Part shown: piece by piece, positions 6,001 to 9,000 of the stretch
Layout of the letters: each line of letters opens with the position of its first letter
How positions within the stretch are numbered: position 1 is the first letter of the stretch
Virus record (IMG/VR): IMGVR_UViG_2880406838_000002
Location: 1 to 18,486 of that record
Length of the DNA stretch: 18,486 nucleotides
Source of the DNA: a virus
Lineage: Duplodnaviria; Heunggongvirae; Uroviricota; Caudoviricetes
Direction: 5' to 3' (one strand)
Made by a program: the position numbers

Positions 6001-9000
6001 CTGCAGCACTGCCACCATGGCACTGCGCGTTAAACACGGAGAGGTCAGCACGAAACTGTGTCAGCATGGCTGTAAACAGCGCAGGTTGCTGTACGTGGGT
6101 GGCGGCGCTCATGTCAAACTCACCCTGCATCCAGCAGACGGCCAGCAGAACGTTTTTGGGATTTTTCTGCAATGCCGCTTTTGTGCGGGAAATCAGATCC
6201 TGATATAACGGCTTGCCCACCCCCCAGCGTGCCGAATCCTGACTGGCCCCCGTGGACTCGCTGAATGTCCCCTCCGCGCCCTGGGTAAATGCCGAACCAC
6301 CACGACAGCATGGTACCAGCAGGATCCCCGCGTTATTCGGGATATACGGGAGCAGTTTTTTGGCAATATGTAAACCCTGGCCGACACAGCCGTACTGCCC
6401 TTTGCTCAGGTCAGCCCTCGGATGATTCAGCGTACTCATATCCTGCACATCATGCAGACAGTGGTCAGCCGGAATAATATCGTTATATCTGCAGGCAGCC
6501 CCGCCCGGCGTCACTGTACTGCGGCGCGCCAGCTGTTTAATGCGCGGATCCGGAGCATCGTATGAATCCGGCAGCGGAAGCCCTTCACCGTAAGCCATGG
6601 CATTGGATTGCCCGGCCAGTACGATGACGTAGTACCAATCCGGCTCAGATGAAGGGCCGACCTGTGGCTCTCCTTCAATAGCCACCGCCTGCATCAGTGT
6701 GTACGGCGTAATGGCAACCGGTCCGCCGTATGGCTGCCAGCCCTCTTTCAGTTTGTGTGTCAGCTTTTCCGCAAGGTCTGACGGCGACGCCGCCCTGACA
6801 ACATCGTAATGTTTAATCGACATCGAATTTCTCCCGTGTAGAGGAACAGAGTTAAAAAGCCGGAAGCGGAATCAAATCACAGGATGACCATCTGCCAGTG
6901 GCAGGTCATAAAAAAAAGGCTGCGCAATGCGCAGCCAGAACTCACAAGGAAAATGATAAAAGGAATAACACTAGTGATGTACGCATGGCGCCTCCCGCTA
7001 AGTTCTGCAATGATCAAACAGAACTCGCTACGTGCCCTTAAAACTCGATCATTTAGCCCCTCCAAGGAGGATTCACCATGCGGTTGATTTTTTAATAAAC
7101 AGTAAACAAAAAAGTCAAGAATTATTCATTCTGTTCTTTCATCATCGGCCACAGCAATACCACAATGCCGCAGACCAGAGCGCCATCAGTCAGTACCAAC
7201 ATTATCCTGCTGGTGAAATCCATCATCACCATCACTAAAAGCAGGATCACAACAGCAAGCAGACACAGTTTATAAAACAATGTTCAGAAAACGCATTCAG
7301 CATGCCTAAGGTTCTATTCCTACGAATAGCCAACTTGCAACTTAAAATATTATTTATGCAGCCAATTAAATTCTGGTCCTTACAATATCAACCTGAAGAT
7401 TCTTATCTTGTGCTGATTGATAAATGACAAACCTTTTACTACCTGCATTGAAAGAAGTAGACAAAACCAGACAATTATCATAACGAGCAAGAACATAATA
7501 CCAACCATCATTATAATTAATCATTTCATATTCTTTCTTAAACTGTGGTTTGTAATATCCTGTCAAAAATGAAAAAAGCCAAAAATATGCCACAAAAGCA
7601 ATCATCACAATCTCAAAAAAATGTTTTTTTATAAATGGCTTATCATAGAAGCATGATACCGATAAAAATCGCCCATAAGATCTTATCGAAATTGTAACCG
7701 CCAGCGCAATCGCTGCTGACAGTAGCAAAAGAGGTACCTGAATCTTCTGTCTCAATATAGAAAACTCAATAATTGCCGGCACAAACAATAATTCCACAGC
7801 AAAATAAAGGCGAAATACATTTAGCTCTTGCATAGAATGTTTTCTTTTCACTGCGAAAAAGAATACAACACCAATACCCCAACCGATAAGAAATATAGCA
7901 ATGACGATAACTGCAAAAAATAAACTTCTGGCAACATCATCAACACCTGCACCTACAATCCACCATGGGAAGCCGTAGTAAAAAGAAGTACCCCATCCAT
8001 AGAAATAAGCACTCCCCCATCCAAGGCATCCCATGTAGGCAATAAAAAGTGAAGAACTCCTGAGCAGCGCACCATCCTTCATAACCACCCCAATACAAGA
8101 TGATAACATTGGCTTACAACTCATAACAAAAGCAATTCAATGCCGTCAAGAGGTTACAGGCTAAAAAAACTCTATTACATAGCAGCCAGCATGTTTACCG
8201 TACAAGTACAACTCAGGGCATAAAAAAAACCCACTCGGCAGCGGGTTTATACATTTTTTACAACATACCAAATTTGCATGAAGTATATGGCTTTTAATCC
8301 AGTTTTGCAATATTTTGCTGTAAAAATGCTGCCTTTTGTTTTGAACGTGTTCTCGTCACAAGCAATAAAGCATCACTATCAAGCTGTAGAAAAATGTGCT
8401 TCATTGCAACCCAGCGTTCAGTAAATGTCTCGGACCAGTTTTTTGTTGTCACTCCCACCAATGATGCCAGTGTCTGGTATTCATAGGCCTCACGCCCTGC
8501 AAGTTCGCTCTTCACATCCTGTGCAGCCAGCCAGATTAACGTCTTCAGGCGATCCAGTGTCTTACCTGCAATTTTTCTGTTACTTAACAAATCTTTAAAC
8601 TCGCTCCATGCCCATTGCGTTATGGTGACCTGATGCCCCCATCGAACGCTTTCGCTGTAACACCAAAGCAACCATGCTTTCTGATGTTCATCGAGAGACA
8701 AAACCGCGCGGCGCCATGAAGAGGTTGAGAATTCAACCGGGCTGACCAAAGCAATGGATGAACCTTTTGCGTACGACTGCTTACCGGAAGTCGGCGTATT
8801 ATCCAGCGTAATCATCTTGCCAGTTACCACATCCAGAATGCGCGGCTTCTTTCGTTTGTATGTACCAGTATCAAATTGTGCATGCTCCTGCCAGGCTTCG
8901 AGCTGGCCTTTCGTTGCTCCGTTCAAGTCAGCAGTAGCTGCCATAAGTTGCTCACGAACATACTGTAAATATTGGGTATTCATGCAGTAAATCCTTTCTA

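Follow-up and report, generated by a model that had tools for sequence, protein, structure and literature searches.

An AT-rich inner-membrane protein gene behind the late antiterminator of a lambdoid prophage remnant belongs to the mobile STM1630 family

What is an AT-rich gene for a polytopic membrane protein doing behind the late antiterminator Q of a lambdoid prophage, in the slot where Shiga toxin (Stx) phages carry stx? The question arises from an 18,486-nucleotide stretch of caudoviricete DNA (IMG/VR record IMGVR_UViG_2880406838_000002, positions 1 to 18,486), the whole of which is here called the window, and in which a first-pass annotation had singled out a 252-codon open reading frame (ORF) as the strongest candidate for an undescribed phage-carried function. 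As set out below, the sequence represents a real gene, kept under purifying selection; the gene is already catalogued, as a member of the STM1630/PF27470/PHROG 1521 family of undescribed function; and it is a single-gene, AT-rich, horizontally mobile cargo gene (moron) that stands outside the phage life cycle. For its product we propose, tentatively, a role at the bacterial envelope.

A constrained gene of a catalogued family

The ORF list and its translation confirm the 252-residue frame, and the homologues point to a shorter product within it. The full-length proteins among 103 homologues measure almost universally 236–238 amino acids, their alignment begins at the methionine encoded at 8082 (MKDGALL...), and the 14 codons upstream of it carry no protein-level conservation. 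The family alignment therefore favours the 238-residue start, which the first-pass annotation had listed as a second version, whereas RefSeq and the phage 434 record both place the start at ATG 8109 and give 247 residues. The two frames are:

7366..8124, minus strand: longest ORF, 252 amino acids (ORF list and translation)
7366..8082, minus strand: STM1630/PF27470-family inner-membrane protein gene, 238 amino acids (homologue lengths and alignment), taken here as the probable extent of the gene

Conservation, on which the first-pass annotation had made its proposal depend, is clear. Against the two closest diverged copies, those of E. albertii and of an Escherichia sp., the ratio of nonsynonymous to synonymous substitution rates (dN/dS) is 0.055 and 0.081, respectively, and the frames stay intact in homologues down to 39% identity; because of these two observations we regard 7366..8082 as more than a chance ORF, an explanation that the low dN/dS values lead us to reject. 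Against more distant copies the ratio is 0.14–0.23, with dS saturated. The gene is also compositionally foreign to its surroundings, as had been noted: its GC content is 36% overall and runs from 0.33 to 0.40 along the ORF, compared with 0.52–0.58 in nanS-p and ~0.49 in Q, and all copies of the family lie at 30–38% GC irrespective of their host.

The first-pass annotation could not place the protein in any family, a statement that no longer holds. It matches PHROG 1521, a family of unknown function, with an E value of 2.1e-154 (residues 31–252 against positions 1–222 of a 222-position profile), and a precomputed Pfam tag, PF27470, which context tables name 'TfpB', is attached to an identical protein (P0001) as well as to all 103 homologues. 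When the protein and its distant members were scanned against Pfam-A, NCBIfam and PADLOC, no match was returned, the Pfam and NCBIfam copies used being without the PF27470 model. The identical protein is listed in RefSeq as WP_001302581.1, 'hypothetical protein', and one fragment of the family is named there 'STM1630 family protein'. In line with that name, tblastn finds 45.8% identity over 238 amino acids to the gene beside sseJ in a Salmonella locus (L003), and the published STM1630 deletion primer is an exact match at L003 5025–5069, inside this sseJ-adjacent gene, which identifies the Salmonella homologue as STM1630. The DNA is likewise on record: the surrounding 1.7-kb region has 99.9% identity to phage 434 (OL657226), whose annotation lists the ORF as CPT_434_68, 'putative membrane protein'; O111 strains match the region at 100%, and 630 complete E. 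coli genomes match it at 99% or more.

The claim of an undescribed function, on the other hand, stands: no characterised family, defence model or solved fold matches. PADLOC gave no defence family at E <= 1, the PHROG matches are all to families of unknown function, and a profile search of the PDB by sequence returned chance matches only, to receptor transmembrane segments at E > 2. Literature searches on PF27470, TfpB, the phage 434 genome and the eltAB flank yielded nothing about this protein.

The family across phages, plasmids and chromosomes

Of 5426 complete E. coli genomes, 1197 (~22%) contain a family member by a search with the gene alone, at a median of two places per genome; in 679 of the complete genomes the copy is at least 99% identical, including O157:H7, O26, O145 and the enteropathogenic E. 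coli (EPEC) strain E2348/69. Beyond these the family is narrow, an exhaustive profile search of 1.84 billion representatives giving only 71 matches at E <= 0.001. Full-length distant members occur in the Pasteurellaceae (Actinobacillus, Gallibacterium, Avibacterium, Pasteurella, Mannheimia, Aggregatibacter and Glaesserella), the Neisseriaceae (N. dumasiana, N. animaloris, N. zoodegmatis, N. arctica, Conchiformibius and Uruburuella) and a few Enterobacterales. Throughout, alignments and a structural model retain a common architecture and motif: GWGxAYxYGWG in helix 1, a YGFPWW loop, ARSL and a C-terminal beta domain. Two further records look like mis-binned enterobacterial contigs, namely a 3-kb contig labelled 'MAG: Veillonella sp.' (L023, JAIITD010000172.1), whose proteins are identical to those of the E. 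coli prophage and whose DNA is 98.9% identical, and a partial protein labelled 'MAG: Acinetobacter sp.' (P0069), 55% identical to the window protein.

In the window the gene occupies the cargo slot behind Q and the terminator tR', as the first-pass annotation had it, and the following signals precede it:

8294..8983, minus strand: Q82-type late antiterminator Q (Pfam Phage_antiter_Q, E 1.7e-91; RefSeq and phage 434 annotation)
8282..8310, minus strand: pR'-like sigma-70 promoter, TTGCAA-17-TATACT, overlapping the end of Q (promoter scan; the position would be typical of lambdoid late promoters)
8227..8248, minus strand: intrinsic terminator of the tR' type after Q (terminator scan; annotated in phage 434)
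8083..8226, minus strand: 5' leader from tR' to the start codon, containing a candidate promoter of its own
~8122..8151, minus strand: candidate leader promoter, TTGACG-N18-TATGAG with a TG extension (hexamers kept in the copy linked to eltAB, the heat-labile toxin (LT) genes, in enterotoxigenic E. coli (ETEC); putative)

A survey for the same gene behind Q recovered it in Yersinia, STEC316 and Stx2-like prophages in addition to phage 434. In a Yersinia prophage it directly follows Q. It does so too in E. coli STEC316 (L130, NZ_CP041431.1), upstream of the tRNA-stx2k block; since a family member there sits between Q and stx2k in one and the same prophage, the gene is not an alternative to stx, as the first-pass wording 'instead of stx' might suggest. 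A 68%-identical variant is found in Stx2-phage-like E. coli prophages (L042–L045), exactly where Stx2 phages carry stx: a stretch with a DNA methylase and tRNA genes is 91% identical to Stx2a phages up to their stx site, and in place of stxAB come 1.1 kb without a long ORF, the family gene, LpxR, PmrD (in L043 and L045) and nanS-p. LpxR and PmrD, both lipid A-related morons, thus adjoin the family gene in L042–L045, and LpxR accompanies the family in both of two distinct layouts, that of the window and that of the Stx2-like prophages. Stx2 phages that share the same flanking DNA lack the family gene. Among 50,697 phage records only three carry it, namely phage 434 and phage 2B8 (two accessions); 188 viral contigs of IMG/VR encode relatives.

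Outside phages the family is just as much at home, and the term 'phage-carried function' proved too narrow. It is found on 156 plasmid records (Shigella 106, E. coli 37, Klebsiella 12 and Salmonella 1). On the Shigella invasion plasmid pINV it lies between virA and spa40, and plasmids of ETEC (L036, L037–L041; for example NC_017640.1, pUMNK88_Ent) carry, ~0.9 kb upstream of eltAB and in the opposite direction, a variant of 59% identity that is flanked by insertion sequences (IS). This eltAB-linked variant is indexed in 1285 blocks of the collection, and its DNA resembles that of the window up to ~70 nt upstream of the ATG, the hexamers of the candidate leader promoter included, while the remaining flanks are unrelated. 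No remnants of Q, nanS-p or TciB were found beside the ETEC, Shigella and Salmonella copies, so that the common part amounts to the gene and ~70 nt of leader. The presence next to eltAB of a gene otherwise typical of the Q-proximal lambdoid slot hints at a phage origin of the LT-I islet. A 39%-identical variant occurs on contigs with a Rep3-type replication gene and IS elements, which have a plasmid-like look.

On chromosomes, the Salmonella gene lies between steB and sseJ and is fixed at this one locus across subspecies; in an island of uropathogenic E. coli a family gene comes after the pap genes, behind papG and a PapX-like regulator; and a decayed copy lies near iroBC. In the Pasteurellaceae and Neisseriaceae the family is represented by a solitary gene between unrelated housekeeping genes, at a site that varies by species. 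Aggregatibacter actinomycetemcomitans (L012, L013, L015, L017 and L025) has at least two paralogues per genome at unrelated housekeeping sites, and the copy of Glaesserella parasuis (L014) has as its neighbour a cdtA/C-like gene, whose product contains an A/C domain of cytolethal distending toxin (CDT). The family is therefore independent of phages: its members occur on virulence plasmids and at a fixed islet of Salmonella, and stand singly in other mucosal bacteria. In many bacteria of the gut and mucosa it accompanies toxin and effector loci. Its rarity among phage records, its absence from Stx2 phages with shared flanks and its many non-phage sites are the reasons for which we class the window gene as a moron and not as a phage function.

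A membrane protein with a conserved, probably periplasmic face

Hydropathy analysis reveals four clear transmembrane segments and a less hydrophobic, Gly/Trp/Tyr-rich N-terminal segment, and two AlphaFold models agree on five helices at residues 3–36, 47–79, 89–111, 116–136 and 155–181 (238-residue numbering), which bears out the first-pass description of about five hydrophobic helices with a Trp/Gly-rich first segment. The soluble tail of 60 residues that it described folds in the models into a five-stranded beta domain at 187–232, ~55–60 residues long. The second of the two models, built on 65 sequences, has a predicted local distance difference test score (pLDDT) of 77 and a predicted template-modelling score (pTM) of 0.69. 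Across the same 65 sequences the mean number of lysines plus arginines is 0.11 in loop 1, 2.46 in loop 2 and 3.32 in loop 4, a distribution that predicts a cytoplasmic N terminus with loops 2 and 4 on the cytoplasmic side, and puts loop 1 in the periplasm, from which a periplasmic C-terminal domain follows.

Conservation in this alignment peaks in helix 1 and loop 1, and a further conserved segment lies immediately past helix 5, on the predicted periplasmic side. The only invariant residues are Y26, Y28, W30, G31, G37, W40, W41 and R52. If the topology is correct, the best-conserved parts of the protein, namely helix 1 (GWGSAYFYGWG), the YYGFPWW loop, Arg52 at the start of helix 2 and the C-terminal beta domain, would gather on the periplasmic side of the membrane. 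Across the 65 sequences no position is wholly or almost wholly occupied by His, Asp, Glu, Cys or Lys, and neither a toxin or enzyme domain (Pfam and PADLOC scans) nor a set of conserved catalytic residues (alignment) was found. Of the cargo classes that the first-pass annotation had considered usual for this slot, toxins and abortive-infection proteins find no support (no PADLOC match, no toxin or enzyme domain); a role at the envelope is favoured, and superinfection exclusion is retained as a rival.

Experimental data exist for the Salmonella orthologue. STM1630 is described as an H-NS-bound gene of unknown function, absent from S. Typhi, expressed in medium that induces Salmonella pathogenicity island 2 (SPI-2) and in macrophages, and dispensable for growth in lysogeny broth (LB); its deletion raises intramacrophage replication in strain 4/74, and its promoter is inactivated in ST313 (PMC6785131 Text S1). 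According to the same supplementary text, which cites Morgan et al. 2004 for it, mutants were reported to be attenuated in calves and chickens (PMC6785131 Text S1). The promoter lies ~180–245 nt upstream of the start codon. STM1630 also belongs to a co-regulated group of virulence genes (PMC2639726) with pagD and with ugtL, pqaA and lpxO, envelope genes of the PhoP/SsrB type, and it was scored as hypermotile in a screen (PMC4219756).

Our leading proposal, to which we give somewhat less than an even chance, is that the window gene encodes a non-enzymatic lysogenic-conversion protein whose conserved, periplasm-facing aromatic surface acts on the envelope during host colonisation. By the known mechanism of lambdoid Q proteins, a Q-modified RNA polymerase would read through tR' into the gene and express it strongly on induction, and in the lysogen the candidate leader promoter may supply expression, much as the Salmonella orthologue uses a promoter of its own. 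The protein would then span the inner membrane with five helices, from a cytoplasmic N terminus to a periplasmic C terminus, and its conserved periplasmic face would bind a conserved envelope component at the outer face of this membrane, conceivably a lipid-linked glycan, lipopolysaccharide (LPS) or a membrane machine. The outcome would be an altered behaviour of the envelope during colonisation, that is, lysogenic conversion. A binding role is preferred to an enzymatic one because of the lack of candidate catalytic residues, and two lines of evidence point to envelope behaviour in the host, namely the recurrent association with LpxR and PmrD and the findings in Salmonella. More doubtful, in our estimation, is a wider form of the idea, in which the family constitutes an uncharacterised class of single-gene mobile inner-membrane factors whose aromatic and arginine-bearing periplasmic surface binds an envelope component common to Enterobacteriaceae, Pasteurellaceae and Neisseriaceae, and alters either colonisation or susceptibility to phages.

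Several points weigh against a colonisation role. The experimental data come only from the Salmonella orthologue, and the Salmonella phenotypes are modest; the hypermotility of the original screen (PMC4219756) is missing from the motility phenotypes of a follow-up study (PMC4534456). The topology rests on prediction, and the candidate leader promoter scores not above chance in the promoter scan. No partner gene conserved beside the family members points to a target. The linkage to virulence genes, finally, may just reflect the gathering of AT-rich foreign DNA in the same slots.

The most serious rival, a fair one though in our judgement unlikely, is a superinfection-exclusion or anti-phage protein that would keep the DNA of incoming phages from entering on the periplasmic side of the membrane, in the manner of P22 SieA and HK97 gp15. 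A small polytopic inner-membrane protein that turns its conserved face to the periplasm, and whose single gene resides in cargo slots of prophages as well as on plasmids, would suit such a function, as would the at least two paralogues per Aggregatibacter genome and the fast divergence of the sequence within a retained architecture. Yet the protein has no PADLOC match and PHROG matches of unknown function only, the gene is fixed at one Salmonella locus across subspecies and induced in macrophages, and its stable linkage is to eltAB and pINV, not to defence islands; a position in the late operon behind tR' would moreover be unusual for an exclusion gene, which must be on in the lysogen. The late-operon position might instead be taken to favour a late function of the phage itself, such as adjusting the time of lysis or modulating the envelope while lysis proceeds, given that the gene is the first of the Q-dependent late transcript and lies upstream of the holin. 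That reading seems to us highly improbable, as the gene is missing from nearly all sequenced lambdoid phages and conserved on replicons other than phages and in chromosomes devoid of phage genes.

We assign a similarly slight chance to an accessory factor for the release or action of neighbouring AB-type toxins (LT, Stx and CDT). Family members do lie 0.9 kb from eltAB (the variant indexed in 1285 blocks), between Q and stx2k, in the stx slot and beside the Glaesserella cdtA/C-like gene, but the window's own slot holds no toxin gene, more than 25 other contexts have no toxin nearby, and the three toxins are exported by different routes; the linkage is more simply read as shared ancestry of lambdoid late-region cargo. 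Least credible of all is a type IV pilus accessory protein. Its sole support is the short name 'TfpB' attached to PF27470 in the precomputed table, and tfpB is also an ORF of the Moraxella pilin inversion region; against it, no pilin or pilus gene adjoins the ~30 loci examined in Enterobacteriaceae, Pasteurellaceae and Neisseriaceae, no homologue is named TfpB, and the TfpB of the literature is an unrelated PilB-like ATPase. Given the lack of a pilin neighbour at any of these loci, the pilus idea was rejected.

Should the product indeed be an envelope-binding mobile factor, as in the wider form of the idea, it would amount to a lysogenic-conversion trait in about one-fifth of E. coli genomes, linked to LT, Stx-phage, pINV and SPI-2 effector loci. 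The gene is present in the classic phage 434, in enterohaemorrhagic E. coli O157:H7, O26, O111 and O145, in EPEC E2348/69, beside eltAB of ETEC, on Shigella pINV and, as STM1630, in Salmonella, and each literature calls its own copy a local 'hypothetical protein'. What is new here is that the phage, ETEC-plasmid, Shigella pINV and Salmonella copies form one constrained family. One family means a single target, so that one set of experiments would annotate thousands of genomes and might also bring to light a new mechanism, of envelope change or of exclusion, that accompanies major virulence loci of enteric bacteria.

The surrounding prophage remnant and comparison with known systems

Along the minus strand of the window the order is NinX, YbcO, RusA and NinH, followed by a lambda-type Q fragment, LpxR (on the opposite strand), ylcG and the Q82-type Q; from Q it continues with the pR'-like promoter, tR', the STM1630-family gene, TciB/DUF3927, a 62-residue ORF, a terminator and nanS-p, and then with a class II holin, an endolysin stump cut by an IS, a lambda-type integrase and a ybhC-like gene. 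From this gene order it follows that the prophage is a decayed lambdoid remnant. The features that flank the gene and its leader are:

7122..7280, minus strand: TciB-like DUF3927 small membrane protein, 52 amino acids (Pfam DUF3927, E 3e-14; PHROG 1470)
6877..7065, minus strand: ORF of 62 amino acids (listed in phage 434 as a putative membrane protein; conserved in part in E. albertii)
6918..6936, minus strand: GC-rich intrinsic terminator before nanS-p, with an 8-bp stem of which 7 pairs are GC, and a T run (scan; annotated in phage 434)
4973..6823, minus strand: nanS-p-type SASA carbohydrate esterase, 616 amino acids (Pfam DUF1737, SASA, DUF6645)
4319..4525, minus strand: class II holin
4122..4319: R (endolysin) fragment, cut by a 1310-nt IS
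9460..10419, plus strand: LpxR lipid A deacylase moron, upstream of Q (Pfam LpxR, E 7e-40)

The Stx-phage late layout proposed in the first-pass annotation is borne out by the order Q, terminator, cargo, nanS-p and holin, and fails at R, which is just the IS-cut fragment. The downstream terminator attributed to the gene is real, but it lies ~430 nt beyond the stop codon, past TciB and the 62-residue ORF, and closes this block of three ORFs rather than the one gene. The LpxR neighbour is as described, on the opposite strand. Scans of Pfam, PHROG, NCBIfam and PADLOC gave no family match for the 62-residue ORF, and annotations of the region at ~6800–7065 (also L002 7460–7701 and L046 6042–6440) conflict: phage 434 has the 62-residue membrane protein on the strand of the STM1630-family gene, whereas RefSeq calls a pseudogene on the opposite strand, which in O157:H7 is a 132-residue protein.

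The lambda-type Q fragment, an N-terminal one at ~10400–10630 (also L001 2877–2966 and L002 3867–3938), precedes LpxR, ylcG and the complete Q82-type Q, and marks a mosaic junction at which the original Q region gave way to a block that starts with LpxR and extends at least as far as Q. An IS3-family element of 1310 nt is present in three 100%-identical copies (2861–4170, 12369–13678 and 18100–18486). The first of them, inverted relative to the other two, interrupts the endolysin gene just past the holin. The 8.2-kb late and nin segment with the STM1630-family gene is flanked by inverted copies. Between the two direct copies lie three plus-strand genes resembling effectors of type III secretion systems (13978–14868, 15092–15922 and 16980–17435), whose products are OspG-kinase-like (NleH-type), Cif and NleG. 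The cargo of the remnant thus comprises effectors in addition to LpxR, nanS-p and the STM1630-family gene.

How does the window gene compare with systems already described? The late regions of lambdoid phages are well known for morons, among them bor and lom of lambda. With stxAB, LpxR and nanS-p the window gene shares the slot between Q/tR' and lysis, an atypical composition, delimitation by terminators, dispensability for the phage and exchange between lineages; its product, in contrast, is an unrelated inner-membrane protein, outside the classes of secreted toxin, outer-membrane protein and esterase. To P22 SieA, HK97 gp15 and T4 Imm the likeness is one of kind only, all being small prophage-encoded inner-membrane proteins that act alone. 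There is no sequence or profile similarity to them (no PADLOC match and no match to a PHROG annotated for exclusion), and the STM1630 family, unlike these proteins, is also fixed in non-phage loci. UgtL of Salmonella is a horizontally acquired small membrane protein that modulates envelope programmes. The STM1630 family resembles it as an AT-rich foreign gene for a membrane protein, and STM1630 lies in the same co-regulated virulence group as ugtL (PMC2639726), but the two are not homologous, and a modulator role for the family is hypothetical.

The closest counterpart is STM1630 itself (SL1344_1560), for which, as for the window copy, a molecular function is undescribed. The two share 46% identity over 238 amino acids, five helices and a beta domain, the aromatic/glycine motif and a low GC content. 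They differ in their settings: STM1630 is fixed on the chromosome, where the effector genes steB and sseJ flank it, and has its own promoter, is silenced by H-NS and is induced in host cells, whereas the window copy is carried in the late operon of a prophage, behind Q.

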